A stretch of 63,967 bases of DNA, filler included, from Intoshia linei (lineage: Eukaryota > Animalia > Orthonectida), in assembly GCA_001642005.1 (NCBI GenBank). It is 8 parts of 8 records of this genome, joined end to end, with 100 filler letters (N's around TTAATTAATTAA, not from the genome) between each part and the next. Parts side by side here need not be neighbours in the genome. Positions count along the whole stretch, not along the records: positions 46,637 to 53,012 come from LWCA01001677.1; 7 more parts are not named here. One strand, given 5' to 3'. The translations under genes were made by a program, and so were the position numbers. Below are positions 1,065 to 62,959 of this stretch, piece by piece; position 1 is the first letter of the stretch; the number at the start of each line of letters is the position of its first letter. The notes under the pieces are model-generated. The model was not told where the DNA came from, ran no database searches, and was given only the letters and a program-made list of their open reading frames with translations.

Positions 1065-1516
1065 TAAATATATATAATTTTGTATTCATTCAATAACAAT
1101 CTGACTAATAGTGTATTAATTGGTTTAAACAGCGATTTCATGAGAAACTTTTAAATTTCAACTCAATGTATAAAAGAATTAAGTGTGTATATTCCACTTT
1201 AAATTTTAATTAATAGATATTATTTTGATAAATTACTGAACTTTACTATACTATATATTTAAAAATTACCTTGGTTTATACATCCAATATAGTGTAATAT
1301 GGCTTTGTCCAATGTAATACCCAGAAACAGGCCAATAAATGAATAATATAAAAAAGATTTTTTGAAAACGACGAGTTATAAACATTTCAAAGTAGCTAAT
1401 ACTTGAACACAAATATTTAAACATAATATTACATACAAACAAAAAAAATCAAATATTTATTTAGTATTTTAAAATTTTGTACATATCAATATTTAATTTT
1501 CTAAAAAATTTATATT

Positions 1517-4500: not shown

Positions 4501-7500
4501 GTGGAGAATAATTTTATATCGATAATTGTATACTTTAACGGATAGTGCTACAATTAGAATAATGATACCATAATTATTAAAAAATGTAGCCATAATACAG
4601 GAATATTGCATACGTAAAGAGTATATTAATGTTGATATAATTCTTAATATACATCCAAAATTGATAAAAATATCAATTTCATAATGAGAACTTTTAATGT
4701 AGTGTTTATTTCGGTGTTTTAATAGAAAGTATATAGACATTATATGAAAAAATATCAATATAACAGAGTATGTTAAAAAGAGAACATTATATTCAACTGT
4801 TGAATTTTTACAATCTTGCAATAGTATACATGTACTTATATTTTTTGTATTTACAGATTTCACAGAGTAATATTCACCACATGAATAACATTTTTCATAT
4901 TGTGAACAATCTAAAATGTAATACAAGTTTTTATGTTTATTATAATAGTCATCATCTCCGTCTCAACTACATTAACATTATGGATGTAATTTTTAGTATT
5001 TATTTTTGAAATGTTTTGGTCCAAACACGGTTAAAGCCGTATGATGGTTTTATCAAAATAATGAAAAAAAAATATATTTTTTTGATCAATCAATGTTGAC
5101 GATTTAAATGTTAAAAACCCTATACAAAAATAATATATTAAAAATAAAATACAATCATTGCAATAAAGTATATTATATATCAGGGTTTCTCAAAGGAGGC
5201 GATTTAATTTTGAAAAAAAATTACATTTTTTTATTAACATCTTAATTTTCATTTATTTTATAGTTTTACGACTATTTTACGGGAATGTATGAAAATTATA
5301 ATTGTGCTACCATTTATATAATTTTGCATAAATTGAATCGAAAATATTACCCTGGCAAATGTGACAAACATTGTCAATATCCAACTTTCTTGTTCCATCA
5401 AAGCAGATAGGTTGACATAATTTCTGATATAAATTTGGAGTTAAGAACACGTCATCATAACCATTTCCATAAAAAATAAAATTTTTAATAGGTTTTGTAT
5501 TGTGATTGAAAAATATTTTATAAGATTGTCCAACAAATGTAGATTGTTTGTTTGTATATTTTTTAACATTTGATATAAAATTGCTATATAAATATTCATC
5601 AAATTTTATAGATTTTTTATAATTTTTTTCATCGTATTTTAAGTAAGTAATATTATATACTGCCAAGATTAATAGGTTGATATTATCCAAAACATGTATC
5701 CAATTGTCACTATTTTGTTGATGTGCATAAAATACACTACGACTATGAAAAATATTCCATTCCTGGGTAAATAGATCTGTAAAGATTAAAGTAACGTTGT
5801 CACTTGGGTCAATTAATTTTAATTTTTTTACAAAAGTTTTTATACAGACATCGGACAAAATTAGTAGTAAAAAATTTGCTGATGAAATTTCATAGTTTGA
5901 TAAATTTGATTCACTTTCTACTTGTACTGATCCTAATGCAATTGAGTAATCTAAAAACATGATGTATAAAGGCTTTAATTTATTTAAACTTTTTTGAACT
6001 TTTTAAATTTTAGTAGTATTAGGAAAGCTGTTGCAGAACTGAGCAAACTTGCTAATTTGACAATTAACTGTAAATCAAATGTTCGTGGAATAAAAAATTA
6101 TTTGGAAACTTTTGAATGTGTACTTATGACCGTTATTTTGCTTAAAATACAAAGACAAATTATGTTAATTTAATCTTAGAATGCACTGATTTAACATTAG
6201 ATGTTGAAAGGGATAACATCATTCAACTCAAGAAAAATATGTTGATATTAACTCTTTTACTGTCTGTGTATTCTGATATACACAGCATAATTTTGAAAAA
6301 CTTTATTCTTTTATTTTCACACATTTTCACATAGGTAATTTAAAAATAATACATGTTTGAATTAAAACATAAATTCCAGACGTGTGGTGGTGCATCATAA
6401 AATAGTATTACAGTGAAAGGGTTAAGAGATAAATGGGAGTTTATACTTGCAGAAGCACGTCTTATTGGAATTAGTGCAGATATTAAAATTATTTTTAAGA
6501 CTCAAAAAATGCGCAATCAAATTGAAAGTGATGTTTTTCTTATTATAATTGACTAGCTTGACTGTTTTTAAAACAAATTGAAAAAAATAAACTGTATAAC
6601 TAAACATGGAGAACAATATTATAAAGTTGTTACCACGTTTAAAAGCTCAAACGCCAATTTCCGTATAATATATATTACAATAAGTCTTATATAATCTGGA
6701 CATACTAGTTAATATTTATTTGTCTACCTCTCTGGAACTAAACCCCAGAAGTGACTAAAATTTAGACGATTAAACATAATTTTTCGCACATTTTAACTAT
6801 ATAGATTTTTTTAGTGTTGTACAGTGTTATTGAACAACAAATCAATGAGGTCAAATTTTAAAAGTATAAATGATATTGATTTGGTGGAAATTCGTTATAA
6901 TTATTTTTTTCAAAATTGTGTTAACTTTTAATATAAATAAATTACATTCAAAGCCTTATTGCCATAATGAAAAGGGATTAGTAGAAAGATTATACGTAAA
7001 ACACTCCGAATATTGCAATGATACACATGATAATTGGGATGATATAATAGATTATGTTTAAATAGGTACTATTTCATCAAAAAATGTATATAGTTCAGCC
7101 GAATTAACTATGGGTAATACATTGTTATTGTACTACTTTTGAATCACATTACGATTTGAATAATTTACACAATATTATTAAAATAAATAAAAACACCCAT
7201 CAATTGCGAATAAAGAAAAATTATGATAAAAGAATGCAATAAAATCTCAATCAAAACATTGGAATAAGTACACTGCAGTGTGCCCATTCCTTAATAAAAT
7301 AAAATGTATGTTACTCGAAAGAAGTTCATGCCAAGTCATTTCAAAGACTATGCTATAGATTAAACATGGAGGTGTAATAGCCTTGTTTATATTAAACTTA
7401 AAATAGTTAACAACTGTTCATTTCTACAATTACTTTCACTCTTAAAGTGTATTTTCATATTAAATTCTGATAAACCCTCTTTATATAATAATCAATATTA

Positions 7501-8884
7501 CACATTTTAATACTAATTTCTAAAATTGATTAATTTAGATTAGAGCAACCAAAAATTGATTAAATTTAGAGCAAGTTGATGACAAATTGCTTTAATATTC
7601 CAAGAAAGCAAGCTTTATATTTTATATAAAATTGTTAGGTTGGCAAGCAACTTTAGTTAATTACTAAAGAATTTAGATAGCAACTGGCAATTTCCTGGCT
7701 ATTTAAAATATTGATTCTTAATATTATTATTATTATTAATACAGTGAAAATTTTTTCATTTTTTTATGTCATGTAGAATGTACATTTGTATGATGCATAA
7801 TGCAAAAGCAATTAAATGTACAGCGTAGTTAAATTATTGTAAATATAGCTCACATTCCATTTTCTTCATACAAAAGAGAAAATTTTATTAAAAATGTCAT
7901 TTTTGTCGATAAACAGTTACTGTATTTAACGACAGATTGACAATGGTTGATCTAATTTGGATCCGATATTATTATATTTTTTTAATTTAATATTGATGTT
8001 TTTCCTGTATTTATGTTAAAAATACTTTTAAAAATTTTAATTGGTTAGAAATTGTAATGACTTCAAATTAATATGTAAATTTTTAATAAAAAAGAAATTA
8101 TAAATATCATGGGCACACAAATTTTGTAATAACATAAACAAACAAACATCATAGTTTAAACAGTTTTATAGTAAGTAGGTAGGAAAATTTCAGTATAAAA
8201 ATAATAAAATTTCATTTTTAATTATGTCTAATTAACTTAACAATTTCATATTAAATCAATAAATTATTAAAAATACATAAAATATACAGTATTAAGATAT
8301 TACTTGTTAGAGATTGCATATATGAATTAATTTCTGAAATTAAATCAATTTCATAAATCCCAGTAGTATAAATGACGGAAACATCGCTAGCCTTAGATTC
8401 AACGAGAAATTTACAAATAATTTCAGCCTGTTGTTTATTGGAAGCTGAAACACTAATAAAATTTAAATTATCAGCCATTTTTTCCAAGTGACTGAAAGAA
8501 ACTTCTGGTAAAATAACTGGATATTTCAAAAATTCCATAATTTTGATTAATTCTACAATATCATTAGTATAATTTGGTCCAACGATAATAACACATTTAT
8601 CTTTATATTTTTCATTATATTTTAAATTTATAATTCTGTTTAACTGATCACTAAGTTGATTTTCATGTGTGTGAGGATAATCAAAACAATAATTAAAATT
8701 TTCATTTTTAAAGCATCCCATTTCTATATCGTGACTAAAATTCAAATAATGATGTAATGAACTAATCTAAAAATTACCTTGGTTTGAATAACCAGTACAC
8801 AATTAAAGTACATTCTCCGAAATGACTTGCGCAAATTTTTAACAATAGTGATATAAATAATGCAGTAATTCTGCTTTCAACCAT
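1517..8884 (-). CDS. Class C (metabotropic glutamate receptor-like) GPCR, paralog 1, 5 exons, ~696 aa
   Basis: Model complement(1517..2005,4447..4910,5351..5950,8304..8734,8778..8884) = 2091 nt, in frame, all introns GT-AG. Signal peptide MVESRITALFISLLLKIC. VFT-like VIIVGPN..YPVILP. Cys-rich domain CQPICFDG..VCHICQDCSQYEKCYSC. Seven hydrophobic helices and the class C hallmark RKFPVNWNECNLI (cf. RxxPxNFNExKxI). Confidence 0.85.
2057..2403 (-). mobile_element. Helitron-like element 3' fragment (intron of GPCR paralog 1)
   Basis: Reverse strand reads ...GTACGTAGTACATAACAGTCAACCTAG|TA, the same hairpin and CTRR|T terminus as the other copies. Confidence 0.55.
2968..4387. mobile_element. Probable TIR/foldback non-autonomous element with subterminal tandem repeats
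   Basis: Left end TGTCCGTTTAGAGTTTCA...GTCATTATGAA is an imperfect inverted match to right end TTCATAATGACTGAAACTCCAAACAGA. Inverted degenerate copies of the 4155-4317 repeat unit occur at ~3050-3115. Confidence 0.4.
4155..4317 (+). repeat. Tandem minisatellite, ~6 x 26-28 bp (TAAGGGTTGGTAAA(A)GTGRATTTTT(T)CCT)
   Basis: Directly visible. It produces the spurious LYQPLRKNP repeats at the end of ORF 4183..4926. Confidence 0.9.
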
Positions 8885-9346
8885 TTGAATACTGATATTT
8901 ATTTATGCAGAAATAAATACATTTGCGTATAAATTATTTACTTTTAATGTAAATATACATATTAAAAAAGATGGAAAATGAAATGCGAACATGTCAATCT
9001 TACAATTTACTGTACAGTATTATTATTATTCATAGGAATGGAAATTTTATTATTTGCGAGTATACAAAGATCTTGCGTTTAAATCTGGTATAGTTTAAGT
9101 TTAGGTTTAAATATACGGTCAATAAGACTGTTACTGATTGTAAAATTGAATGTATAATATGGATTCAATTTTTTATGGATTACAATTAATAAATGAATTG
9201 TTAGTTCTATTTAAATTTTGTGAAATATTTATATTTGGATGTAACAATTGTTTACTTAATTTTAGCTAAAGTATAATTTATTATCAGATTTCACAGAAAA
9301 ATGTCAAAATTAATTATTTTTTTTTTTATTTAATTATTTATGACTA

Positions 9347-10137
9347 CAGTCAACCTTCTATAACGTGAACTGCTCCAATAATGAACAACTCCAAAAATTT
9401 GTTATAGTTTACTATGAAAAAAGTAAATTAACCGTGAACATTCTACTACGTGAACGATGAACATGATTTATCCAAATTAAGTGAAGTTCTTATTGTTATT
9501 CACAATTATGGTATACAAAACGTGCTTTTCGAAAAATTTTGATTTCTGCAACATGAATAAAGAAAATTTAAAAAAAAGAAAAAAAGATTTAGTTCTATCT
9601 ACAAAGAAAAAACTAATTCATTTGTTTGATGAAGACAAACGTAGTACACAACGTTTTCTTGCTTCAAAACACAATGTATACAATAACCATTATAAAAAAT
9701 AATACATATGAAGAAAATCAAATAATGTCTAAACTTGAAGACCCAGAAATCTTATTTTTTACCCATTATGAAGCTAATAATCATGCTAAAAAATTAGAAA
9801 CATTTTTTATGATTCATAACCAAGAAAAATTATCAAGTGTATGGACTTTAATGCAGGAAATAAAGTCTGAAAAATTGGCAAGATCATCAAAAATAACTGA
9901 TTACTTTGGTTCTACCAAAGAAAGAAAAAATAAATTAATATAATTATTATAATAATGTTTATTATTTATTTATCTTTGTAAAATTAATAAATAAGTTAAA
10001 TATTTTTTTCTGAATTGTTATAATATCAACTTTAATTTAACGGTTACTATGTCAATAAATTTTTTGTTCACCATTTCTACAATCATGAACATTCAAATAT
10101 TCGAGTCCCAAATGTTCACTTAGTAGAGAGTTGACTG
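9347..10137 (+). mobile_element. Internally deleted pogo/Tigger (Tc1-mariner superfamily) element
   Basis: TA|CAGTCAACCTTCTATAACGTGAAC ... GTTCACTTAGTAGAGAGTTGACTG|TA: imperfect ~24 bp TIRs with TA TSD. Retains an N-terminal psq/HTH-like KRKKDLVLSTKKKLI..STQRFLASKHNV and the C-terminal SKITDYF motif typical of pogo transposases. Confidence 0.8.
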
Positions 10138-10173
10138 TATATTATTTCTAAATTAGACAACATTTATATGCTA

Positions 10174-11820
10174 CTAGGTTGACTGTTATATACTACGTAC
10201 AAACAGAACCTAGCTCTGCCGAGGACACATTTTTATTATACCAAAAAAATAAATTCACGTTGAAAATCATTATTATTATTATTGTGAATATTAATATTAA
10301 CTATTATTAATCCTTTAAAGGAGTGTTTCCCAAATTTTTTTCAGGTGGAACCATCATATCACATTAATTTTTACTTTAAAGTGAATTATTCCATCTTAAT
10401 TTTTTGTTTGTTAACATTTGCGTAAAGAATTTTAAAAACAATTTTTATCCTTTAATTTATTAGACAGAATGTGTGTATAATATTAAAAATGAAGTAAAAG
10501 CAGTACAATCCTAAAAATTTCATCAATAGCATAAATTCCAGAAAAAATAAAATTGTAAAAACCTATTTTGTCATTTCAATCTGATAATATATATTCAGTA
10601 CCAATTTAATAAATACTTAAAAATGTTAATCATGCATCAATAATTAACTGAATATTCACTTTATAAACATTTCAGTCGAATTTTACCATTATTGCAAAGG
10701 ATTGTAATATAAAAATGATATTAATAAAGTTTTTATTAACAAAGGGTGCACTTTTGATATAAAAATTCGTTCACACCCCTAGTGTATGTAATTAATAGAT
10801 CCTACTTGATAATAACCTATACATGAAAATATCCGTATTTAACTCTAGTTTTATATGTATGTGATCATTAGAATAAGTAAGCTAAAAATTTAAGATTTGT
10901 CTCATAATTAAAAAAATAATTATTTAATTAATTAATTTTAAAATAAAATTTTTTCTTATTCACACTAATTACTCAAAGTTTAATAACATATAATTAATTT
11001 TTTCAGAAAAGACATAAATTGAAGCACAAAAATAGCCAAATTACATAATTGTGTTTAGTGTTTCTATAAATAATGAAAATGTTAATTGGTTAATTACTAC
11101 ACGTTAACAATCTATCCAAATATCGTGAATAATGTCTTTCTGCTCCAAAGAGGTCACACTTTCAACTGAAATGGTCAGACCCCCTAAGTAAACCAAAAAG
11201 TTCATTTTTGTTGTCTAGTGTAGTATATAAATTATTTTTCACCGGGAATACGCAGATTTCTGGGGTTGAAATTTTGTATTTATATTAACTAGAATAAGCT
11301 CTATCAGAAAAATCTTTTTTTTAATTTTCGTCGTTTTACATTTTTTGTTTTAATAAAATATTTCGGAAAAAAATATATGAGTACTAAAATGCTTTTTTGA
11401 CCGTGACGGTATCACTTATTCAGATGGAAATTTTTTTGTGTGTTGACAAAATACAACTGTAGCACCTGTAAATTTTTTTAAATTCTAGGGCTGTTTTCAT
11501 TACAAAAAAGGGTAATTTTGGGTTTTGGACCTGAAGATATATTTTTTTTAAATTTAAATTTATGATTTTAAAATTTGTATCAGAGTGTATATTTTTTTAA
11601 ATTCTCGAACTCATTTGATTTTCAAAAAAAAGAACAATTTGAAAAAAGGCTTTTTGACCCATAATATGTGAGTTTGGGAGGTTGAAATTTATTTTGCTAA
11701 CTTCCGAGAAAAAACTGTAATTGAAATGTGGACTTTATATAATTATAAGACTGCTAATTATTGAAATAAACGATAACATACACACATACACAGAAAAATA
11801 AAGCATATTATATAAATAAA
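10174..11820 (-). mobile_element. Helitron-like element, long or composite copy
   Basis: CTAG 3' terminus plus hairpin at 10174. Conserved family core at 11230-11820 ending in GCATATTATATAA. Confidence 0.55.
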
Positions 11821-12312
11821 TATTATAATAAATGCATCGGAGGTACTAATAAAATGAATCAAAATACAGTGTTGTGTACTGAAATACGAAATATTGTTAT
11901 ACTCAATGAACGCTATTGTGCAACTAGATACGGATAAGGGAGCATTCACATAGGGAAAATTATTTTAAATACATTTTTTGGATAACTTAATTTACAAAAT
12001 GTTGCTTAAATTTAATTGTTAATGACTTATTTTCAAAGTTTTTATTACATTGTGTATATTTTTAATATAATTTAAAATAAATTTCTTTCAACGCCGTTAA
12101 CACATAAACAAGACCAAAACGATGAAAAATATATAACAAATTAATTTTTTTAGATAGAAGATTGTTTTGCTTTGGCCTAGGGAATGTTTAATCCAGTGCA
12201 TCATGAACAATTTCAGATGAGACAATATGGCCATATTAAAAAAGTTTGAGAACTCCAGTATAGACCTTATATTACTGAAATATAAAACATCAATTTTAAT
12301 ATTCAAATACAA

Positions 12313-15300
12313 TCATTCAAATACTGTAGATCTTTTAATTTGTTTTCCCAAATTGAAAATAAAAGAGTTATCTAGTACAACATTTTGAATTCGAATGGTA
12401 TGGATAACATAAATTTTAATAATTCCAAATGGAAAAATCAAAATTATATTAACTACAACAATTTCAAGCGATATTACTAAAAAATGTACTTGTTCATAAG
12501 GTGAAAGATAGGATATCAAAATTGTGTACATTATTTCAAATAAAGTTGAAACGAGAAATGATCTATTCATCAACATTGTTTCATTCCAATTTGCAGGATA
12601 TGCACGTATAGGTATAACCAGCAATAACAATGTACCATGTATTAAGGGGATGCCAATTCGATATAAATATAATTTTAAGATTTCAATTGTAGTATCAGCC
12701 CTTCCATAACAAGATAAATATAAACAATGTGTATGTCTTTTGGTATATCGTACTTTTTTCAATTTTATTTCATCCAAAACCATATAAAGATATAAGCAAA
12801 TAAATATCTATATTAAAATTATAATTATATTTTATTGATAACTCATAGTACTTGTTATTCAATTATTACGTACATATTAGTACACACTGAGTCAAAATTT
12901 ATTGTCTATTTTTGAAAATATAAATTTAATCGGTCTTTAATTTTAATTTACTTTAATTTTTTTTACTTAAATTTGTATTATTTATGCTTATAATTATAAT
13001 TATATATTATAACCAAATTTAATTGTAAATTTCAAATTTTAGTTTTCAGATAACGTCAATAGCAAAATACCAAAATTAAAACTTTAAATTTTTTATAGTA
13101 AAAATAATTAAAGCAATTAATAAATATACATTATTTTATTATTATATCGCAAAGCTATTTCAGTAACATAAATTCATTTATAATTTAATTAGCTAAATGG
13201 TTAATGCTTCATTACATTTAGAAGATTTATTTTTTTCAATTATAAAAAATTAATTAACAATTCAAGATGAATAAAATTTTTTGAAAATAAGAATGAAAAA
13301 TTGGGTATCAATAAAAAAAATTGCGAAGGAATGAATTATATAGATTTTCACCCACATTTCTTTATTGAAAATGTGTAGACGTTCAATGCTTATTTTTTTT
13401 GAAATTGTAGGATCAATATTTACATTTTCCATTTTTATTTTAATCGAAATATTTGAAAAATATTGGTTGATAATATATTAAAATATATTTTTCACCCGGA
13501 ATGCGTAGATTTCTGGGGTTGAAATTTTGTATTTATATTAACTAGAATAAGCTCTATCAGAATAATCTTTTTTTTAATTTTCGTCGTTTTACATTTTTTG
13601 TTTTAATAAAATATTTCGAAAAAAAATATATGAATACTAAAATGCTTTTTTGACCGTGACGGCGTCACTTATTCGGATGGAAATTTTCTGTGTGTGTTAA
13701 CAGAATTCAACTGTACAACCTGTAAATTTTTTGAAATTTTAGGGCTGTTTTCATTAAAAAAAGAAGGGTTATTTGGGGTTTTGGCCCTGAAGATATAATT
13801 TTTTTAAATTTAAATTTATGATAATGTTTATGATTTTAAGATCCGTATCAGCGTATATATTTTTTTAAATTCTCCAACTTGTTTGATTTTCAAAAGAAGG
13901 ACAATTGAGGTTTTTGACCAATAAGATGTGAGTTTGGGACGTTGAAATTAAGTTTGCGAAGACCCCCGGAAAAACTGTAATTGAAATGTGGACTTTATAA
14001 AATTCTAAGACGGGTATTTATTTAAATAAAGATGAACACACACACTAACAAAAATCGCGTAGCATATTATATAAGTAATTATATCTGAATGCATTGAGTT
14101 ATAAGAACCAAGAACAGTTATAAAAATCTATTTGTAGATTAATAAACATTACCATACATATAACAGTAGCTATCAAAATTTTAACAACGTTTCCATAAGA
14201 TTTCGTGAATTGAATTGTGTTTCTTCGATAATTGTAGACTTTAATTATTAAAGAATTTAGGATAAGCAATAGTCCAAAGGAATTAAACAAAATGGATGCA
14301 ATGCAAGAAATACGGATTTGTGAAAATATTAAAAGGATTGAAAATGCTCTAAGCATGCATCCAATATTGATGCACACATCAATTTCGTAATGTGAACTTT
14401 GAAGATAGTTCTCTTTTCTCTTTAAAATCATAATAAAAATAGATAAAATTTGAAATATTAATAGCATTATTGTATATACTATTATAAGAACATCATATCC
14501 AATAACTTCATCGTTGCAAAATGTCAAATCTATACATCTGATAATATCTCTGTTGTTTGATAATTCTACATATCTATAATAATTGCATGGATAACAACGT
14601 TCATGAAATTTACAATCTATAATGAATTATATTAATAAAACATTTAGTAACTACAAATTTATATTATTATTACTTTATTTTATAAATATACTAAAGCACG
14701 GGTTCCCAAAGTAGGCGATATAGCCATAGAGGCGTAAATTCAGTTAGTTAATTTCATTGCTAGACAATTTTTCATTTAAAATCACTTTGTAGTACAAAGT
14801 TGGTACTATAATTACAACAACGAAGTACTAAAAAGTACAACTTTGTTATTATCATTTTTATATTTATTACAATGTTTGTAAAATTCACCCGAAATATGTT
14901 TTAAAGTGTTGATTTTATTAATTATTGATACAAAATATTTTTCACTCATCGAAAGCAGATATGTAATACGCATAATGTATATACCATCACATTCAAAAAG
15001 AAATTACCATTATTTACAATTTTTAGGATTTTAATTTAACTGTTTTTACTTTATTTTTAAGATTATACACTCATTCTCTCTAATAAATTAAAAAAATGGG
15101 ATCACAAAATTTTTTTTCAAATTCTTTACACAAATGTTATCAAAATAAAATTAAATGGAAATATTAAATTAAAAGATGTGAAATGACAGAAAGATAATTA
15201 AAGTATGTACTTTAGCACTTAGCTAGGACAAGTTAGTACAATTATTTATGTATATAAAATATTTTTGTAGGCATACCTTGGCATATCCAACAAACATTAT

Positions 15301-18300
15301 CAATTTTATTTTTTTTGGTTAAATCGAAACACACAGGTTGGCAATTTTCTTGATAAAAATTGGGAATAAGTGAAATGTTTTGAGGATTTTTAAGTGAATA
15401 CATAAAGTGAATATTAGGTTTCATATTCTCATTATAAAATATTTTATATTCTTTTCCAACAAATAAGGTGTGTGCAAAATTCATTCGTTGAAGTGTGATG
15501 GAAAAATTATTAAAAACGTATTTTCTTAAATTTTCTTTGTGGTTAATTTTCTTATGTTGCGCACTAATGTTTATATATGTTTTTATTATAATAGAATTTA
15601 TATTTTCCATAACATCTATCCAATTGTTAGTATGATGTGAATCACAATAAAATACTTTTCTTCCGTCAAATATATTCCATTCATTATTAAATAGGTCTGT
15701 AAACAATAATGTAATTTTTTTTTCAGGATCAATCAAATTTAATTTTTCGAAAAATCTTAATGGTGATAAACCAGATACTATCATCAAAATAAAATTTGTT
15801 GATGAGATTTCATAGTTTTGAATTTCTAGATCACTTAAAACTTGTTGAGCTCCCAAAGACATGTTATAATCTATAAATAGTATTATCAATAATTGCAGTT
15901 TTTAGTAATTTTTTACTAAATATCGGTGATACACGTTGTACCCGTACCTTTAAATTGTCGCTATTAACATTTCATTATATTTTATCATACTATATAGTAT
16001 ATAGTTTATATATTAGGGTGTGCACTTTTATACTGAAAAAAAAGTATATTTGCACATAGGTGTGTTTTTGTGTGTTGATCACAAATATGCAAAAATTAAT
16101 ACGTTTAATTGAAATTTTCTCCGCTATTTTTAAAAACGCATATGATATTTATTATTTTAGAAATTTGAACAGTAGTTTATTACTTGCTAATTTACTTTAT
16201 AATAAAATATCATTTATAAATTTCAAATATGTCAAAACCCAATAATTTATTATCTAAAAATAGTTTCAAGTGGATATGTTCATACGGAGTAGTTATTAGT
16301 GAACCTTTAAATAATTTATCAAGATTGCCAACTATAAATAAAATTATGGGAAGATACAATTCTTTACAAATAGAACACAATAAAAAATGTAAATCCTATT
16401 ACCGTAATAAAACTGCTGAAGAAATACTTTATTTATGGATAAAATTTAGACTGGGACCAATTTCATTTGTATTGGTAAAATTAAAAATTCGCCATTTAAT
16501 GAAAAAATATGCACTTTATGTAAAAAATTCAAACAAGAATGGGATGAAATATTCACGATAAGAGATACAAATGTGAAGATTGATGAGGAAGATGAAATTT
16601 TTCTTCAAATGCAAATTAATTCAAAGGGTATAAAATTTTAATACTGTATATTAAAATAAAAAATTTCATAAATCTAATTATTATTTTATCATTCTAAAAA
16701 GTATTTTGACGAGCCGCATGTAATCCATGGACCTCTATTTAAACACTCTTTATTATTTTATGCAACACCAACAAGAAAGTTTATTATTGTTGATAAAAAA
16801 AAATTGAAATATGTTTGGGCGGAGCAAAAGTGTAACGTTTTGTAAATGTAATCGAATATTTAAAATTATATTTATTTTATAAAAATGTTAATTATGATCC
16901 ATCCGTTAAAATTTACATTAATTTGAATTAATAAAAGTAGACAGCAGATTAATATAAAACGATTCAATGGAACCAGGTGATGCGATTGAACTTTCGTTAT
17001 TCATGTAATTATCATGATGGGAACCCTCCATCCCTAAATTTTTTTTATCTGAATAATATAATATTACATATTTTCGGTAAACTGCGATTTACTATTACTA
17101 TGTTATATATTTACTACTAGCTCACATATGGCTCGTACTAGTCTACATATTTACAGTAAGTGTTCACTTTAGGGCTTCTACGTTTAGGGTCGCCCGATTT
17201 TTTTATATATGCCGCCATAATATCTGCATCACTAAGATTTTTTCCACTGAGCACTGGAAAATTTTACAGGGTACAATTGATACTATAAAAACACAATATA
17301 ATAAAGTTTATGTTCTTTATTGAAAAATAATTTTAATTATTTTTAAATTCAAAAAGATTATAATGTTTTGAGAGTTAGAAAGTTTTAAGCACGCCACTCT
17401 GCTCAAAACAAACAGTTTCATTCAACTCGTTGACTAATTTGTAATTTATATATAAAGCGGGTTTACTACAAAAAATTAATGTGCTCCCTATCATGAATTC
17501 TCAAGCGGGTGTGACGGTCCCTAAGAGGTTGCAAAACGTTTCAGGAGTTGCCAATTATTTAAAGATTTAAAAAGAACTTTATTTAAAAGTTTTTATAATT
17601 TTTACAAATTTTATGATACATTTCATTGATTCATTTGAAGAGAAACCTCAGGTACGATTAAGTCGGCACTAAATACAGCAATCTCAATAAATTGAATAAA
17701 TTTTTAATAAATGCAATGATAAATTAAATTTGATTTGATTCGTGAATTTGCTTTCCCGGAAAATCACAATCACTAATTACAATAAAGGAATTCTTGTGAA
17801 ATTTTTGTTGTTCGTAATAGGGAGGGGGTCGCAAGATGCAAAAGGTTTTTAACTACAAATCTATATAGTTAGGTACTAAAATGAAAAATTAAATAGCGTA
17901 CAACTCGTTGTCAATTTCTCTTAGGACCCACAAAATTGCTTATTGCACTAGTGCGGCCTGGTACATCGATTAATAAACGCTCCTTTACATTGCAATGCAT
18001 TGTAGTGTAAAATGCTTTGTAAAGAGAATATAGTAAATACATATATTGGTATATTGGTTCAAATTGAATTAAATAAAAACATACTATTTATAGATTGAAT
18101 GTAGGCATTAATTTCTTGCAAAATGTCAATTTCATAAACTCCAGGCGTATAAATTACTGATATATCACTCGCTTTAGCTTGAATCAAAAAATCGCAAATA
18201 ATTTTGGCTTGTTGCTTATTTGAAGAAGATATGGAGGTCAATTTTAAATTTTTTGAAAATTCTTTAAGGTGGGTATATGAGACTTTTGGTAAGACAATCG

Positions 18301-18929
18301 GATACACAAAAGTATTTAATATTTTTATCAATTCAATAGCATCATTTGTATAATTCGGACCAACTATTACAACAATTTTATCTTTATATATTTCATTATA
18401 TTTTAAATTTTTAATTCTATCTATTTGGCTTAATAATGAATAGCTTCTTGATCGAGGGTAGTCTATACAAACTTTGACATCCTCAAATGTTCTACAGCCT
18501 TCACGCACATCATAACTATAATTGTTTTTTATATTATGACAATAAATAAATTAGAAATTATAAAACTTTGCAATGAATCAATGAATTAGAACCATTTAAA
18601 CTGAAATGTTATTTGTTTATTACATTTTATTAGCCATTTTTTGACACGATTACCTGCAGTAGATATTGATCTTATACTTAAAGATACAAAAAAACGGCCT
18701 GTTTACCTGTTGAATGAAAACTGTTCATGTGTGATACTGCCAAAAATATTCATAATAATAAAATTAAATATTGATTTAGATTGCCGTAAATTTTGTTGTA
18801 TTTAGAAGATACCTATATTTAATAATACCTGGGTCTAGAAATCCAATACACTATTAATTCATTGGTGTATATTAATTTAAATTGTACAATACAATATAAT
18901 AATTGAAATATAAAGATAGAATTTTTCAT
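12313..18929 (-). CDS. Class C GPCR, paralog 2, 5 exons, ~694 aa
   Basis: Model complement(12313..12807,14153..14616,15277..15870,18085..18515,18829..18929) = 2085 nt, in frame. Exons 2 (431 nt) and 4 (464 nt) match paralog 1 in length and phase. Motifs IVGPNYTND, CQPVCFD..VCWICQDC, SSHYEID, RAYPANWNE. Confidence 0.85.
13300..14078 (-). mobile_element. Helitron-like family copy (intron of GPCR paralog 2)
   Basis: Near-identical blocks to the 11230-11820 and 45610-46248 copies, e.g. GAATGCGTAGATTTCTGGGGTTGAAATTTTG and GAAATGTGGACTTTATAAAATTCTAAGAC. Boundaries approximate. Confidence 0.65.
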
Positions 18930-28832: not shown

Positions 28833-29879
28833 TACAATTACTAATTGTAATATTTATTAGTAGTTAATATTTAAAACAATTAGTGAATTAAAAGAGATTA
28901 ATTGGAACATCTTTCATCAACAAACCAAATATCTTCGACTTCACACATATTTTTGATTATTGATGTATCCACTTTGCAATCCAGTTTAAGATTTAATGAT
29001 ATGCACAATCGTACCTATATCAAATACATTTTTTTGTTCTAAATTCAAAAATAAATCGACAATGTCAATTAGACATTTAGTTAAATAAAATTAAAATATT
29101 ATAAACAATTTTAAATAATTACAAATTTTTGACATAAAATAACAGTTTTTGGGCAAGGCAGCTAATATATCGCTACGCTAAACAATATATTATTATGTAA
29201 TAATAATATTATAATTAATGTAATATAATATGTTACTTGATATTTTAACACTATGCGTGTTATATACTTCATATTCAGTAGTTAGAAAATATAGAAATGC
29301 TCACAAATTTCAAATATTAGCTTATGCATAGTGTTAATAAAATGGTTTTCAACCTTTTTGTATTCGTGACCCCTTATAAACATAAAAAATTTTCGCGACC
29401 CAAAAATTTTCTATATACTCCAAACATCATATCAATTCACATAAATAAAATTACTAAAAAAGCATATTCAGTTTTATTTATATTTTATACTGTGCTCACT
29501 GAGCACTGCTCAGTACAATGTATTATTACACTGTCCAACATTGCAAAAAGAAACTTAATGTAACATATATTAAAATAATCAGCTAATTTTAGTGATTCTA
29601 ACGATATACATATTTTTATAATTGAAGATCGGAAAACGTGATATTTTAATTAGTAATTTTACTATTCTATTAAATTTATACCCACAAAAAAACAGTGACA
29701 TTTTTTACATATCAAATAAAGTTTTTATTACATCTTTCAATTAATTAAAGCGATGAGTTAATTTTATAATTGCATTCTCACGAAAGATTTATACCAAGAA
29801 TTACACTGTTCAACACGTATACTACAAACTTACTGCGACCATCATAAATGAATTATTGACTGTTAGACTTTTCTAATGA

Positions 29880-46248: not shown

Positions 46249-46731
46249 TATGTAAAAATTTAAAAGAAAAATTTTTATTTAAAATATTTACTTAGTCATT
46301 TTACAGTTATTGAGTAATATCTTTTTTAGCATCATCCATAAATCTCATAAACTAAAATGTCAATACATATATAAAATTATAAATTAATTACCCTAAACCA
46401 TTTGTCAATTTTTTCATAATTCACGGTTGTTATGCTTTCAATGAATTCCATTTTTTGAACGGTAGGGTGTTTTTCTTTATCGTAAAACTCTTTCAGAAAT
46501 GCCAATTCCTCTTTTGAAACACGAATTCCCAATAATNNNNNNNNNNNNNNNNNNNNNNNNNNNNNNNNNNNNNNNNNNNNTTAATTAATTAANNNNNNNN
46601 NNNNNNNNNNNNNNNNNNNNNNNNNNNNNNNNNNNNAAACAGTGATGAAATCTCTTATTCGCCATAATAATAATATTTCTGGGGCCTTGTAGGCTGTAGC
46701 ACCGTTATATAAATTTTAAGACATAATTGTA

Positions 46732-48060
46732 TTGCCATTATTAGATAGTTCTGTTGTAGAACAAGCACCAATAGATGTACCAAATGTTAAAGATACCATG
46801 GAAAATACAAAAATATTGATAAATAAATGTGTCACAAAAATAAATAAAATAGTGAAACCTTTGACAAATCTTTGCAATCTTGCAAAACGAAAAACTATTA
46901 CACTTACCAAAGGTACCGTTACCCGATTTCTCTTTCGACAATAATAACAATATGTATGTGTTATGACAGGTCAAAACTATGGGTAGGTTGAAAGAAAATA
47001 GTCTAAAACAGAAGAAAATATATTTCGGTACTGGTGAACGTATAATAGTTAGTGATAAAGAATATGATGTGGAAATAACGGATGATGCAGACGTTAAAAC
47101 GGTAATGAAAGTACGTGTTATTAGTACTAAATTGCGTGATGGAAAGATATATATTTCTCCAATAAATTGTAGATTGTTAGGTCTGTCAGTGAATGATTGC
47201 AGTAAAATTGATTTGCGTTATTCTGAAAAGATTTTTGATGTATTACGACTTTGGCGTGCTGATCGTAATGACCAAGGACTACATCGCCTAGGTAAACCTA
47301 TACCAAGATCGGGTATAGTTAGCACCGGTATCGATACTGTACTATCAACAGTACTATCAAATGTAACGTATAGTGTTGTAGTGATAAGGCGTTATCTACA
47401 AAGGTTTTGGTATCAAATAATGACGATACAACAGTTGATAATTGTACAGATGTGGAGAAAGATGATAACGAAAATGGTAAGAATATTATTAATGCGGGTT
47501 TATCTAGAAAAATAATTGCAGAGTATTTGGGTTATTGTCGAGATATACATGAGACTAATTATAAGATGATGCGAGAATTCGCCTATGAATACGCAGAAAT
47601 GTATAGTGCCGTACCATTATGTGTTAAAGCTTTGGATCACAATTTTGGTATAATTAATTCAGATGGAACTTGGTTAATTGAACCCAAAGAGACGAAACAA
47701 AACTACAGAAAATTTTTTTCTTCTAATGAATTTCATGATTTTTCAAAGCTCAGTGCTTTTAAGGATTCTCTTTGTGTTGTTAATGATTATTGTGAAATAG
47801 GGATGGAAATTGATGTGGTACGTCAATTTCTTACTTTACCAGTACTGTATAATGTGAATTATAGTTTCATACAAGCTGCACCGGGTACAAGTAAAACTAC
47901 TCATATTATTCGAAACGCTAGGTCTATTATGGGTGATGAGAAAGTGGATACCATAATTGTTAATACTTGTGAAGGCAGGGATGATGTAAGAAATCGCATG
48001 AATCAATATTATAATGTACCTACTTTGAGCGAATATAAACAAAATAAATTGGTGAGGTAA
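46732..48060 (+). pseudogene. Endogenous viral element: replicase fragment ending in a virga/tobamo-like superfamily-1 RNA helicase (truncated after Walker A)
   Basis: Three consecutive intron-less ORFs joined by a stop and a frameshift. The last has NFGIINSDGTWLIEP (cf. the tobamovirus helicase accessory region FGxxDxxxxxWLIKP), Walker A FIQAAPGTSKTTHII at 47875-47898, and motif Ia DTIIVNTCEGRDDVRNR. It breaks at KLVR, before Walker B. Confidence 0.75.
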
Positions 48061-48171
48061 TAAATTTCAATCAATGCATTGGAAAATTTTATGACATTAT
48101 TAAATAATTGGTATTTCAAAAAAAATTGATTAGATTGGTTTTTGTTATTGTTTACAACTGTCACCTTACAT

Positions 48172-48481
48172 CAGTGCTTTCCAAGCGGTTTGTCGTGACA
48201 CTTTTGTGTGTCGCCAAACTTTATATAATTTTTTTTTAATTCCATTAGCAGACAATACAATTGGAAGACGTAAAAATGCAAATAAAAGATATTTTTAGTG
48301 ATGATGATAAATTTTAAATAGCTTATTTTCAGATTATTATTAAAAAAAAATTGGTTTAAATTATATTTATCGATTTATTTACTATATTTATTTACAATCG
48401 TTTATTTTTTTGATTGGTGTGTAGCGAAATTTTTTGAGATCTAAATATGTGTCGCCAACCAAAAATGGTTGGAAAGCACTG
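48172..48481. mobile_element. hAT (Charlie-type) MITE
   Basis: Perfect 13-bp TIR CAGTGCTTTCCAA...TTGGAAAGCACTG and perfect 8-bp TSD CCTTACAT (48164-48171 and 48482-48489). Confidence 0.9.
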
Positions 48482-48601
48482 CCTTACATACTTACTCATA
48501 CATTTAAGATTAAAAATATTACAAAATACTTATTCTGATATGCCCTTTTTACATGTAAGTTTTATTTGTTAATATAATTGTCTGAATAGATTTCTGAATC
48601 C

Positions 48602-50113
48602 ATGTCAATGCAAAAAAAGATTGTACTTGAACACTTCCAAATTTTGTCGGGAATTGACGAGACATATAAATGTTGTCAAAAAGTGTTGGTACGACGCAAA
48701 GCGTCTGGTTGGTCGAATCTGTATAAGCACATTCAGGTACATATCATTTATTATATACACATATATTCAGGTACATCATTCTGCAACGAATAATTTGAAT
48801 TTTGGAACTACAAAAAAATCCCATAGTATTTTCAGATGGATCGAATGGGTTTGCGTTGGAATGAAACCATTTGCATTTGTGGAAGATCCACTTACAAGAA
48901 TAAACATTTGTTTGGAACTTATATCTGCAAAGTCTCTAAAGTTATACATGGAATAACTGACCAAAAAGGTACAAATAAAGATTTCAAATGTTCTTCCAAA
49001 AAAATTCGCAATAATTTTAGATGGTTGGACCAAAGGAAGCACTCATTTCGTTGCAATTTTTGGAAGTTACAGTGACATTGATGAGGAAAATGGATATTCA
49101 ACTTTCCTCTTATCTTTTCTCCTTTAATGACCGATGAAACCACATTAAGTGCACAACTCATTATGATTTGATTTTAGAAACTTTAAATATTTTTGATAAA
49201 ACCCTTGATAATGTGGTAGCATTAATTGGAGACAATTGTGAAACTAACAAATCCCTCAGCACAATTTGTGGTGTACCATTTGTCGGATGTGCAAGTCATA
49301 GATTTAATTTGGCTATTAAAGACTACATAAATCAACATGTACAATTATTAGGAAAAGTCAATAATTTAATGGCAAAATTAAAAAACATTAAATTATCGGC
49401 TGCCTTGCATCATTTTACTCAACATAAACGTGTTCAAATGAACGTAACAAGATGGAGTAGTACAGCTGAAATAATCAATAGGTAAACTAATCTTTAAAAT
49501 TACCTATTATTATTAATATTTATTTATTTAAATATTTTATGCTTAGACCTTATTTGGAATTTTTGCCCCAAATACACGAATTTACATTGAATGAAAATGA
49601 AATTAATACTTACATAAACAACATAAACATAAAAAAATTTAACTCCGTAACATTAGCTTTACAACGAACATCAACAGATATGGTTGATGTACGAAATATC
49701 TTTAAAGAACTATTAATACAATATCCATCTATGAGCAGATACCTTAATGAAGATTCGAAAATTGTTTTGAGCAAACATTTTAAGAAAGGAGTTGTGAAAA
49801 TTCTTGATAATCATGAACATTTGCTGCTTAAACCTGAATTAAAAGCTGTGAAATTATAAAAATAAATGATTCAGGTAATATTTAATTTATTTATTTATAA
49901 TAATTGATGAGGAGAATTGTGATTTGGCTTCTAGTATAATAAAAAAAGAAAATCCAATTCGAATGATACTGCATACCTTAATTGTAAGTTTATCGTCCTA
50001 ACATCTGATATAGTTGAAAGATTTTTCAGTTTGGGAGGATTTACTTATACAAATTTAAGGAAACGGTTATTACCATCAAATTTGGAGAATCAGCTATTCC
50101 TAAAACTCAACTA
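48602..50113 (+). pseudogene. BED-finger hAT transposase pseudogene with spliceosomal introns
   Basis: YKCC..GWSNLYKHI (BED), FAIILDGWT (first Asp), LIGDNCETN (second Asp), GCASHRFNL (CxxH), VTRWSS, and PTSD-like TSDIVERFFS (Glu). Contains stops and frameshifts. Short introns at ~48737-48770 and ~49482-49547. Confidence 0.85.
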
Positions 50114-50344
50114 AAAATTTTGGGACACTGAGACAATTCAGAATATGGATATGTTGTAATTGTTATGTAAATAGTTGTTAAATTGAATTTACAGTGATCA
50201 TGGTGATCACTTTATGATCTTGTAGCGATAATAAATTTGTTATTAATAGAAATCCTTGAAACATTACATCATAAAGTATATATTATTTTTGATTTTTTTT
50301 GTATTTGTTTTATTTTAATTTTATTATAAACTTATAAAATTAAG

Positions 50345-51310
50345 TCATAAAGGTTGGAAAACGTTCAGGGATAAGAAGTTAGAACAGTTAAAACAATGAT
50401 GGTGTAGAATCATAATATTATGAATTATGATAAATATTGGTTAGATAATTTTAATCATGTAGCTTCAGGGTCAGCTCCTTCTGAATATAAAATTTCTAAC
50501 AGCAAAGTCGGACGAACAACAAAGCGGAGTATGGCACATATTATATCATTAGATGATATTAAAAAGAAGATAAACGAAAAAGCTATTCAATCATCAAAAG
50601 TTCACGGTAAACCTGAATTGGAAAAAACAAGACCTGTTTTTGGAGTAGAATCATTTCACTATTTTGTTAGTGATTATTTTACAAATATAGCAGAAAATTT
50701 ATTTCCAAAAATTCATTTTGACTTGAATGAGAAAACGATGACTGCACTTAGATCAATGACTACTAGATCGCAACAATGTTCGAGAGAGTGAAATTGTGTA
50801 TTGTTTTGATTTTAGTGCATTTGATGAACAGCATAATATTAATGATATGGTAAGTGTTATTGATGTTTTGCGCTATTTTTGATCGGCATTATAATAATGA
50901 TGATAGATAAATTGTTTTAAAATCAATTCAATGGACATCAGAATCAGAATATAACTATGCAATTACCTGATAGTTAAAAGATATATAAGTGTAAATTTGG
51001 ATTATTTTCAGGATCTCGACAGACGACATTAATTAATAGTGTGCTTAATTATATATATATATATATATCAAATTATATAATATTAAAATGATAACAGGCA
51101 AAAATACTATGGTTAAAAATTCATTACATCATGATGATGTTTGGATTATATTTGAAGATGCATCTATATGTGAAACATTCAGTGATTTCGCTCATAAGAC
51201 TGGAGTAAAGAACAATCCACCAAAACAATTATATAGAACTGGTATTGGTGAATACTTGAGGATGTTTTATTATAAAGATGGTTCAATAAACAGATTAATA
51301 AGTAATGTAG
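50345..51310 (+). pseudogene. Endogenous viral element: totivirus-like (Ghabrivirales) RNA-dependent RNA polymerase, degraded
   Basis: Motifs in the correct order across frameshifts: YW..NHVASGS; KPELEKTRPVFG (~50609-50644; cf. KxExGKxRxIY); CFDFSAFDEQH (50802-50834; motif A); GLFSGSRQTTLINSVLNY (50999-51052; motif B); LHHDDVW (51124-51144; decayed GDD); GEYLRMFY (51247-51270; cf. EFLR); GSINRLIS. Confidence 0.9.
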
Positions 51311-51682
51311 ATAACAATAACTACATTTACAATTATTCTAGTAACAAAGGATACAAGAATTAAAATATCGTTGTAAACATTGTTTTTAAATTAAAATCTT
51401 TGATCATAATCTGTGAAGTCATCGTACACAACACTACTATGTATACATGCAATCATGCCATAATGAGCTTATTGATCACCATAATATTATTGTATCCTAT
51501 TATCAACTGGTGTCTGGCGAATTAATCCAAAATAATTGATAAATATTCATATTGAAATGAAATTAAAACTTAAACTGAACTATTCGAGATAAATATTTTT
51601 GTAGGTAAATAATCTTTTACGATTACTTTTTTTTAAGACTAAATAAAAAATCTAATACGATGCTAAAAAGAAACAATCAAAA

Positions 51683-52870
51683 ATGAGAAAAATGTATACC
51701 TTAGAAGAAAAGATTATAAATTATAAATTTTTCTGAAATGAATAGTGCAAAATATACTCAAACTTTCAATTAAATTTGGCATGCCTCTTGGTGTGATTAA
51801 TAAAATTTTAAAGAATAAAGACTCTTTAAAACAGATAAAAATAGATGGGATTGAGGACAAACGCATGTTTGTTAATTTTGCAACCGCTGAAATCGACAAA
51901 CTAGTATATGAGGGGTTTGTTCGAAAGAAATCGAAAAATTTTATTATTTCAGGAAATATGATTAAAACAATAACTCTTAAAATCGGGAAACAGCTAAAAA
52001 AACCCAATTTTAAAGCTTTAAATGGTTGGTTTTCCTGTTTTCAAAAACGTCATAATATTCGTTCTCGTGTTATCAGTAGTGACACAGATCTTGTTAATAC
52101 AAGTTAATTTGAAGCTTTTTCAGATTTTTTTAGAAGTAAAGAAGAGAAATATAGTCCTATGGACATTTATAATTGCGATGGGACAGGCCTGTTTTTCAAA
52201 AATTCTAATTCTAGAATATACGTTTTATCAAATATTGATAAATCTTGTGGAAAATAATGGAAAAGTCACAGATGAATTCCCTGCGTATGATGAAAACGAC
52301 TATAGTGACGATAAATTCATCGATATCTGTGATACCGCACATAGAAGAAGACACCAATCATAAAGACAGCATTGATTATTGTACCTGTAGTAAAGTAGAC
52401 ATAAAAGATGACATTCTATCTAGAATAGAGGCTCTAGAACAGTGATTTTCAACCAGGGGATCGCGAAATTTATCAGAGGGGTCGTGAGAATTTGAAAATT
52501 TTATAAATACATTTATTTATTTTAATATATTATTGACAGTAGTAATATTACGGAAATATTTTTACATTCTGAAAATTTTTAAGTCGCGAAAATTTTTTAT
52601 GTTTATAAGGGATCGCAAACACAAAAATGTTGAAAACCACTGCTCTAGAATGTATTAATAAACTAGAAAAATTCTTTATTTCTGATAACTTGAATGGCTT
52701 AATCGCATTACAAGCGGTGAAATATACTATATTAAAAAAAAGACCCAAAACAATGTGATTTTTATAAAAAAATAAATTAATTAAAAATAAATTTGTTTGT
52801 TCGTTAACTTTTTTTTGAGGAACAAGAAATTTTCATGTAAGTTGCTATTCGTTAAATTGAGGTTTGACTG
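51683..52870 (+). mobile_element. pogo/Tigger (CENP-B-like) transposase relic
   Basis: RKMYTLEEK, KLSIKFGMPLGVINKILKNK, FKALNGWFSCFQKRHNI and DIYNCDGTGLFF (cf. NxDETGL). Right terminus GAGGTTTGACTG|TA at 52870. Confidence 0.8.
52440..52642. mobile_element. hAT (Charlie-type) MITE inserted in the pogo relic
   Basis: TIR CAGTGATTTTCAAC...GTTGAAAACCACTG with 8-bp TSD CTCTAGAA. Confidence 0.85.
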
Positions 52871-61372: not shown

Positions 61373-62959
61373 TCACAAGACAGGTAAACTTGTTGATGGG
61401 TCTTTAGAAGAATAATTAAAATTACGATAAGAGGATAACTCGTATCTATTAACATTAGCTCTTTCCTTGAATTTTGATAGTTTATAAGATTTGAAGGTAA
61501 AGTTTGTGTCATTTAATTTAGACTTTTGGAAATTCATTACATATGTATAATAATTACGTTGATGAACCAGGCATATACCAATAGAGGCAATAAAAAAAGC
61601 ATTAAACATTGTTAGTCTGTGTAATATAACATGCGGCATGACAATAACAAATATACCTTGAAAAGCAAAGTAAATGATGTATAAAACCATATAAATCATG
61701 ATAACTCCTGAATTAAAAGGTAAATGTACTGATCGCTTTGAATAGTCCAAAAAATTTTCTTGCTTTTTGTATTTCATATTTACAATTAAATTTAAAATTA
61801 TTATAAAAACAATGATACAGTATATATACCATTGACTTTTAATTATATCAATATAGTAAGATTGGTATGGATAACACGTGTACATAAAATTTTGAGAAGC
61901 ACTTGAATATACAATTTGATGAAACGACCATTCTGACCAAATAGTATAGAAAGATGTAATTAGTTGTATTGAACCAACCAGCATAGTAGCTATTAAAATC
62001 AACAATGATTTTACTGAAATCAATCTTTTACAGTAAACAATGTCTGTTGCATCAATTATATTTATCCTTTTATTGTTAAAAACATCGATAACATTTTCAG
62101 CATGTCGAATATTATAATACAATCGAGGGTTCAAACTTTTTCGTTTTTTTGTAAATACATTTTTTATTATTTTATATTTGGTATTTCGGATGTTGATTTC
62201 ATCAATTTTTAGGGTTAAGAGACTATAAAGAATGTATAATGATTTCATCAAGATATTGGAAAACATTAAACAAGTGAAGTAGGATACTACAATCATGTTA
62301 ATATTGCATTTTTTGTTTGATACTATTATTACTATACAAATTACATGTAGTACCAAAAGAGTTAATAAATATAAAATATCCACGAAAACACACATTGACA
62401 CTCGATTTGCATAAACTATTAAACCCGTAGTGAATAGGATGTAACACACTGATGCAATGGAAAATGACAAAATTGTTAGATCTATGTCATCTAATGGTAC
62501 TTTATCGTCTAGGACTGATAAGATGAGTTCATAGTAGTGCATTATTTTATACAGATTTGTACAATCCTTTATAGTACTTTTGTTATTATTACATATATTC
62601 AGTGTTTGATTATTCAAAATGTTCTCTGAATATGTTTCAATATTATCAGTGTTATAAATATTACTATCGAGTTTCTTTTTAGTTTCTTTTGCAAATTTTT
62701 CTTGTGGTTTTATATCCATATCTTCATCGTCATTATAATTTCTGATTATCTTTTCACTTTTAAATTTAAAATTTTTCCAGTTTATTAATATCTTCTCCAA
62801 AGTTTTGGGAAAAATTAATCTTGTTTTATTCAAGTTTGAACAATGACAATCAATGTAATTATTTTTTGAGCATTTTGGTAATATATTATCAATGCTCCAG
62901 TAATCTATATGATTGAACTGGATGAATTCTATAGGTTCATAATTTCGCCAATTTAGTAA
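61373..62959 (-). CDS. Class C-like 7TM receptor, large terminal exon (upstream exons outside the window)
   Basis: The open frame extends to an acceptor at 62959 (LLNWRN..PKCSKNNYIDCHC). Seven hydrophobic segments, TM3 CLMFSNILMKS (cf. SxxLxKT), TM4 SIQLI, and an ECL2 Cys (YTCYP). Confidence 0.65.
   Translation of the reverse strand, partial: LLNWRNYEPIEFIQFNHIDYWSIDNILPKCSKNNYIDCHCSNLNKTRLIFPKTLEKILINWKNFKFKSEKIIRNYNDDEDMDIKPQEKFAKETKKKLDSNIYNTDNIETYSENILNNQTLNICNNNKSTIKDCTNLYKIMHYYELILSVLDDKVPLDDIDLTILSFSIASVCYILFTTGLIVYANRVSMCVFVDILYLLTLLVLHVICIVIIVSNKKCNINMIVVSYFTCLMFSNILMKSLYILYSLLTLKIDEINIRNTKYKIIKNVFTKKRKSLNPRLYYNIRHAENVIDVFNNKRINIIDATDIVYCKRLISVKSLLILIATMLVGSIQLITSFYTIWSEWSFHQIVYSSASQNFMYTCYPYQSYYIDIIKSQWYIYCIIVFIIILNLIVNMKYKKQENFLDYSKRSVHLPFNSGVIMIYMVLYIIYFAFQGIFVIVMPHVILHRLTMFNAFFIASIGICLVHQRNYYTYVMNFQKSKLNDTNFTFKSYKLSKFKERANVNRYELSSYRNFNYSSKDPSTSLPVL

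Follow-up and report, generated by a model that had tools for sequence, protein, structure and literature searches.

Toti-like endogenous viral elements (EVEs) and the capture of viral sequence by LTR retrotransposons are both already known in kind. In Aedes, the nearest EVE has the polarity of the LTR element in 543 of 614 cases, a bias that the consulted part of one report reads as copy-choice recombination (10.1101/127498); hybrid cDNAs of virus and LTR element have been sequenced from infected cells, according to the passages used from a second (PMC6797480), and an excerpt of a third places one EVE within a full-length Pao-Bel element and notes template switching (PMC5497376). Isopod EVEs, toti-like ones included, are described without signs of retrotransposition in the sections of that paper at hand (PMC4231630).

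Here we describe a broken piece of an RNA-virus polymerase gene, about 950 bases long, that is located inside a repeated element in the genome of Intoshia linei, filed by NCBI under Orthonectida, Lophotrochozoa. An orthonectid is a tiny marine parasite. The window, by which we mean the whole 63,967-nt stretch of DNA analysed, joins eight contigs, and the piece lies in the contig at 46637-53012 (Table 1). Five sequencing runs were available, all as contigs; four were mapped on this contig and three on 50090-51730. X1 is the DNA run of organism A, sample S1, possibly the source sample of the window assembly and so not independent of it; X4 comes from the same sample, X2 from organism A in another study, and X3 carries another organism label. 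Contig depth gives a rough total and does not measure copy number.

Table 1. Positions in the window of the viral insert, the repeat around it and the neighbouring elements
Feature	Positions	Strand	Evidence or remark
MITE with terminal inverted repeats and 8-bp target duplication	48172..48481		high summed X1 depth
Decayed hAT-like transposase, 3' end interrupted by the repeat	48590..50151	+	zf-BED E 0.041, Dimer_Tnp_hAT E 0.025, both under curated cut-offs
Left part of multi-copy LTR-like repeat, TGTTGT start	50152..50348	+	run contigs, composition
Viral insert: broken mid-portion of a Ghabrivirales-type RdRp gene	50349..51300	+	profile match, tblastn, composition
Block 1, open: fingers motifs up to motif F	50411..50773	+	37% identity to P0003 2154-2274 (tblastn)
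Block 2, other frame: motif A	50775..50870	+	motif search and tblastn
Block 3: motif B	50978..51046	+	tblastn
(AT)n run, 19 nt, at frame change	51050..51068		repeat search; length from assembly only
Block 4: motif C without glycine, motifs D and E	51112..51300	+	tblastn; assembly only
Right part of same LTR-like repeat	51301..51379	+	run contigs, depth; alternative end 51433
Further repeat, ~10% diverged copy in X1	51440..51667		X1 record 5
Decayed Tc5/pogo-like transposase	51742..52257	+	HTH_Tnp_Tc5 E 1.7e-8
Second MITE with 8-bp target duplication	52440..52642		52571-52639 matches 29343-29411, 90%

The viral identity of the insert is carried by its match to the Pfam family RdRP_4 (PF02123), whose pieces follow one another in order (profile positions 203-291, 298-324, 346-383 and 390-447 of 465). 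Single pieces scored E 0.007-0.018, and the frame holding two pieces reached E 1.7e-10, above the curated cut-off; an earlier note on this DNA had named the lack of such a match as a possible refutation, and the match is there. Eight conserved polymerase blocks occur in order, seven from an alignment of relatives and motif C separately, which bears out that note's seven ordered motifs. The strings DFSAFDEQH (50808), GLFSGSRQTTLINSVLNY (50999) and HHDD (51127) lie on the + strand in three frames, the first two in switching frames as previously described. With the closest known protein, P0003, tblastn returned four collinear HSPs across the window (sum E 2e-35), while a PDB sequence search with the window frame gave no match at E 1. 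The insert (GC 0.279) matches the genome in AT-richness, and its protein leans towards AT-rich residues (FYMINK 0.38; P0003, 0.27). We are highly confident that the piece is an integrated viral fragment.

A phmmer search of 1.84 billion representative proteins gave 30 matches at E 0.001, the window's own piece included, with P0003 at E 1.5e-22 and all remaining matches at 4e-8 or weaker. P0003 is a single ORF of 2712 aa on an 8785-nt contig, with RdRP_4 at 2139-2459; the insert, at about 952 nt, amounts to 11% of that contig's length. Joined with X at the breaks, the four window blocks are 41% identical to P0003 over 239 residues (next relatives, 33% and 32%), and two motif residues are common to the window piece and P0003 alone, each being found in 1 of 31 relatives. 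The two are sisters in a 32-row tree (99.6/100) and in a mixture-model tree of 18 of the 32 rows (100/99), the rows being search hits and not type species; the window's own P0001 and P0002 and the cluster duplicates P0030, P0032, P0035, P0036 and P0038 were left out. Compositional attraction as the source of this pairing was rejected, as FYMINK differs between the two and the mixture model retains the pair.

Deeper in the tree, placement ends in an unresolved fork (90/85) with XiangYun toti-like virus 3, Sclerotinia sclerotiorum dsRNA virus 3 and others. Motifs and tree support a Ghabrivirales-type origin without assigning a family, so that of the earlier "totivirus-like" the broad assignment stands, membership of the totiviruses proper is no more than possible, and "totivirus" is a loose label. 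The phylogeny of the repaired polymerase that had been proposed as a check likewise gave the sister relationship with P0003 but, its rows being search hits, no place in a named family. One of the toti-like RdRps compared, P0020, was annotated in a fungal genome, that of Akanthomyces muscarius (70,100-nt contig), and is likely another EVE.

P0003 is a candidate for a new Ghabrivirales family in its own right. Its first 2050 residues had no match among the 35 proteins compared (best iE 0.026), a PDB search with it returned weak picornavirus polymerase matches only, and a scan of viral contigs found no relative. A word-based search with its polymerase gave 3 matches among 2064 long candidates and 0 among 7616 short ones. 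Beyond the polymerase, tblastn matched nothing else of P0003 in the window, N-terminal part included.

The insert is decayed as a coding sequence. The frame changes near 50774, between 50871 and 50977, and at the AT run, and the stretch 50871-50977, ahead of the motif B block, holds stops in all three frames. Two of these changes fall within an X1 contig that has 0 differences from the assembly. The AT run, one of two such runs in the window, lies where the frame switches between motifs B and C, as the earlier note had reported. Its further proposal, growth of the run out of Tyr-Ile-Tyr codons, is plausible, P0003 having YAY at this position; the spacing from motif B to motif C, not a multiple of three yet inside the range of the relatives, fits gain and loss of AT units alike.

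Aligned with P0003, motif C has a one-residue gap (HHDD), which agrees with the loss of the GDD glycine previously claimed; GDD is present in 29 of 31 relatives, the two others being short fragments of 209 and 241 aa. Run contigs are cut at 51039-51079 and 51080-51299 is without a contig, so the length of the AT run, HHDD and the last block are read from the assembly, as is the finding that the catalytic GDD is not intact in an open frame. The piece thus shows the coding decay that marks a non-retroviral endogenous viral element. As a fragment whose frame changes several times and whose motif C is broken, it does not, judging by its sequence, make a working polymerase.

The host transposons around the piece had been recognised before; the LTR-like repeat that directly encloses it had been missed. 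The repeat starts sharply at 50152, TG first, in all four runs. Positions 50152-50268 are common to other copies, and 50269-50348 is T-rich (10% GC) and absent from the other X1 copies seen. There are two candidates for its 3' end, 51379 (AACA, where the extra X1 depth stops) and 51433 (ACAACA, the exact inverse of the first six bases). Among the flanks listed, those upstream of other copies are purine- and G-rich: one comes from this repeat's family (3 X1 contigs, agreement 0.91), one is a mixed consensus, and two further purine-rich flanks belong to a sister family. This make-up is reached by 1723 of 126,340 window 13-mers (1.4%), with thresholds set after the flanks were seen.

A TG start and a conserved purine tract mark the beginning of a 3' LTR. 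Because of the TG start and the purine-rich tracts ahead of other copies, the repeat is likely the LTR of a retrotransposon, and we call it LTR-like only. The viral piece has the same sense as the inferred LTR. The copy holding the viral piece has no purine tract ahead of it; neither a primer binding site (PBS) nor a 4-6 bp target duplication follows 51379 or 51433; and, with 30 flanking letters visible per contig, the repeat could be linked to no gag-pol, PBS or target-site duplication. Two candidates were rejected: the five bases before 50152 recur at 51349-51353, where the repeat continues beyond them, and a PBS-like stretch at 51508 belongs to the next repeat. The sister family shares only the first 30 nt (50152-50181) and has purine-rich upstream flanks of its own (X2, X3, X4). 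In X3, the segment 49901-50195, with two variants of the hAT 3' end and the junction of hAT and repeat, has depth 20-50, against about 2 elsewhere in the transposase; were X3 an RNA run, a transcript that ends in the repeat would account for this.

At the left junction, an X1 contig (50152-51038, 0 differences, depth 10.2) bridges the viral body into the multi-copy repeat, and X4 covers 50649-50807. The viral body is found in sample S1 only; X2 and X3 are without cover there, which we weighed neither way. Summed X1 depth is 163 at 50145-50199, 10.2 at 50310-51024 and 103 at 51300-51354. Back-calculation gives an X1 depth of about 78 over 51301-51322, the excess stopping near 51380, and for X3 it gives 3.3, the depth of its single contig there. 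The insert, at 10.2, compares with 11-14.4 in its neighbours and 27.7 upstream (X1). By segment, X1 depth is 27.7 on 46738-48220 and 10-14 on the hAT element, the insert and the right flank (48454-51750); the transposon stack may be present on some haplotypes only, or the upstream piece may be duplicated.

Copies of the repeat without the insert are seen in X1 and X3, with 50207 joined to 51329. The X3 contig with this joint is likely a paralogue, that is, another repeat copy rather than an empty allele, because it has 4 differences in 52 left-hand nt and majority variants at 50182, 50189 and 50192. The joint was rejected as an exact empty site, since 50208-50268 and 51301-51328 are common to other repeat copies, which share 50178-50268 (X1 record 3) and 51301-51439 (X3 record 18). 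The hexamer at 50343-50348, which occurs 21 times in the 63,967 nt, opens the 30 unaligned letters of X3 record 18, and GC jumps from 10% to 35% exactly at that site. The simplest reading is that the insert, 50349-51300, replaced about 24 nt of the repeat. Its left edge is set by a single match of 6 nt in the terminal letters of one contig, and its right edge is the start of the multi-copy repeat, with the right junction read from the assembly. The RdRP_4 match (50384-51318) runs 18 nt into the right-hand repeat, by overshoot or microhomology.

These edges adjust those first given (50345 and 51310). The earlier note had argued for germ-line integration over contamination: integration is upheld by DNA-type runs, decay and the left-junction contig, and germ-line fixation is no more than possible, the piece being found in S1 only. 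Of the DNA spanning both junctions that it had called for, the left is at hand without differences, and the right comes from the assembly. X2 was rejected as independent proof of the viral junction, its match (49995-50281, 0 differences) ending short of the insert. X3 record 14 holds this locus's hAT-repeat junction with 0 differences.

We suggest, at a probability of roughly 0.6 for the whole route, that the piece was captured by LTR retrotransposon copy-choice, then integrated and decayed neutrally. A dsRNA virus is not known to expose any single-stranded form but its (+) transcript. Such a transcript would have been co-packaged with retrotransposon RNA, and reverse transcriptase would have switched from the element RNA to the viral mRNA and back; two switches, out and back, yield a replaced stretch without duplication, here about 24 nt of the LTR exchanged for viral sequence of the same sense. 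The hybrid cDNA would then have integrated into the 3' end of the hAT-like element, the rest of the retrotransposon being lost through later insertions or recombination, and the viral piece would have decayed neutrally. Polymerase homology, the repeat on both sides, its insert-free copies and the left-junction contig support this route, as do the LTR-like marks of the repeat and, by parallel with Aedes, the shared sense.

Several observations count against it. Capture within U3 should show in both LTRs, yet a single X1 contig covers the viral body and no second copy was found within the window; and the lack of a purine tract at this copy, the ambiguous 3' end, and the lack of a gag-pol, PBS or target-site duplication tied to the repeat all weaken the LTR assignment. 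Break repair just as typically exchanges a few bases and leaves no duplication, and viral cDNA from whatever reverse transcriptase might have been patched into a double-strand break in a resident repeat copy. This is a credible if unlikely origin, which would account for the replaced ~24 nt, the single copy and the presence in X3 of this locus's hAT-repeat junction with no viral body, but leaves the shared sense with the inferred LTR to chance (one in two, a weak point); moreover, arrival in a repeat a few hundred bases long would be likelier had the element itself made the cDNA. Were the repeat not an LTR, as in a non-autonomous DNA element or a LINE end, the piece would have entered by another retroposition route. 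The common TG start and the conserved purine-rich upstream flanks in several contigs, together with the lack of a poly(A) tail 3' of the viral sense strand, make this improbable, although the internal domain, PBS and target duplication of an LTR element were not found and the T-rich tract 50269-50348 adjoins the insert.

Under either copy-choice or break repair, the integration may be real and the virus one that replicated in the host animal or a symbiont, only its RNA reaching the parasite's germ line. Orthonectid plasmodia grow inside host tissue, and fungal and insect labels occur among the tree relatives; the AT-richness of the insert, on a par with the genome, and the like shift of its protein are what a virus adapted to the parasite would show, though decay in place has the same effect. 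We think such an outside host rather doubtful; infection of this lineage, as claimed in the earlier note, may be the case, as may infection of the parasite's own host animal. Contamination or misassembly, in which the 6.4-kb contig or its right half is foreign (for example, DNA of the host animal), is very improbable. The contig does lie between two N gaps with the highest GC of the eight (0.286, others 0.232-0.268), 51080-51299 is without a run contig, and X3, with its other organism label, holds pieces of the contig. Nevertheless, repeats of the contig are met again, at 88% and 90%, in contigs of the window that bear genes, and have high depth in the DNA run of organism A; X2, from another study of that organism, matches this locus up to a point before the viral piece; and the protein homology is collinear across the uncovered part. 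In addition, an RNA virus is not known to enter a DNA library in a form with stops and frame changes.

The rest of the window carries animal-type genes at about 25% GC, including a class C GPCR-like 7tm_3 match (E 2e-5, under cut-off), a glutamine amidotransferase exon and an enoyl-CoA hydratase exon; the family of the second MITE is also found on a contig bearing a CTP-synthase-like exon. Two tandem diverged class C GPCR-like genes, with weak ANF_receptor and 7tm_3 matches, lie at 1500-18550 (-), and Pfam gave no match for a membrane-protein ORF of 528 aa (61373-62959). The seven gaps (e.g., 46537-46636) each consist of two 44-N runs around a 12-nt spacer that places stops in the frames, an assembly device. 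Downstream of the insert, 52859-52870 is likely the 3' terminal repeat of the Tc5/pogo-like element and is followed by TA; no 5' partner was found in the contig at up to 2 mismatches.

Upstream, 46700-48060 (+) holds GC-richer (32%) ORF pieces whose end is the start of a P-loop helicase (AAPGTSKTT), cut off before the MITE. Atlas features predict a helicase N-terminus there (0.92-0.94 for the part), and the motif presumably recalls superfamily-1 helicases of alpha-like RNA viruses; this piece may be a second EVE. Its predicted fold has a pLDDT of 35, a protein search with the ORF at 47374-48057 (326 candidates) found no relative beyond Intoshia linei's own protein (98% identical), and a viral-contig scan found none. 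A reading of the upstream ORFs as belonging to the virus of the insert was rejected, because neither P0003 nor the remaining matches align to them. The gene model P0001, which joins the helicase-like piece to the hAT zinc finger, is likely an artefact.

No virus record for Orthonectida was found in the literature searched, with most subscription journals outside it, and no paper titled on orthonectid viruses was among the matches listed. Within the same scope, we found no paper on endogenous viral elements of Intoshia and none joining Ghabrivirales, Lophotrochozoa and endogenous elements. A virome paper covering 31 phyla names Orthonectida once, for its guide tree, in the text consulted, and its supplements may bear on any claim to a first record (PMC11097642). 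The locus would add a rare virus record in this animal group, an animal host anchor for a deep RdRp lineage, and a case beyond arthropods and mammals in which surviving empty copies of the carrier repeat may allow the capture route to be read base by base.

Tentatively, and short of an even chance, the locus might be read more boldly. It would be the first virus trace from Orthonectida: a family-level Ghabrivirales lineage with a single capsid-polymerase ORF, known here from P0003 alone, would have infected the parasite, and its mRNA would have been caught by copy-choice inside an LTR, with both switch points readable against empty copies. If the helicase-like piece 2.3 kb upstream is counted in, the contig could then be a small EVE-collecting locus of the mosquito type in a highly reduced spiralian genome. 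The locus opens two questions to test: is the capture of RNA viruses by LTR elements through copy-choice a general process in animals, and do parasites whose genomes are reduced retain an EVE-based small-RNA memory?

Among viruses, P0003 is the closest relative and tree sister of the insert and shares its RdRP_4 polymerase, but it is an intact single ORF with GDD, and a long branch separates the two (path 2.43). XiangYun toti-like virus 3 (NCBI: unclassified Orthototiviridae) and Sclerotinia sclerotiorum dsRNA virus 3 (unclassified) share with the insert RdRP_4 motifs in order at 32-33% identity and, unlike P0003, are tied to it only via the fork described above. In totiviruses proper, a frameshift links two ORFs, one for the capsid and one for the polymerase. 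P0003 has one 2712-aa ORF, and the insert is a polymerase piece, in which this layout would not show. Among endogenous elements, the Totiviridae EVEs of Armadillidium vulgare, as far as the published sections consulted describe them, are likewise toti-like RdRp fragments in an invertebrate genome, but group with artiviruses, references for which were not among our search matches, and show no sign of retrotransposition (PMC4231630). The non-retroviral EVEs of Aedes, as described in the excerpts used here, resemble the insert in being short viral fragments in the sense of an LTR-type element within a transposon-dense stretch (10.1101/127498, PMC6797480, PMC5497376), whereas the Intoshia insert is nested in the terminal repeat itself, derives from a presumably dsRNA-type virus and lies in a non-arthropod host.
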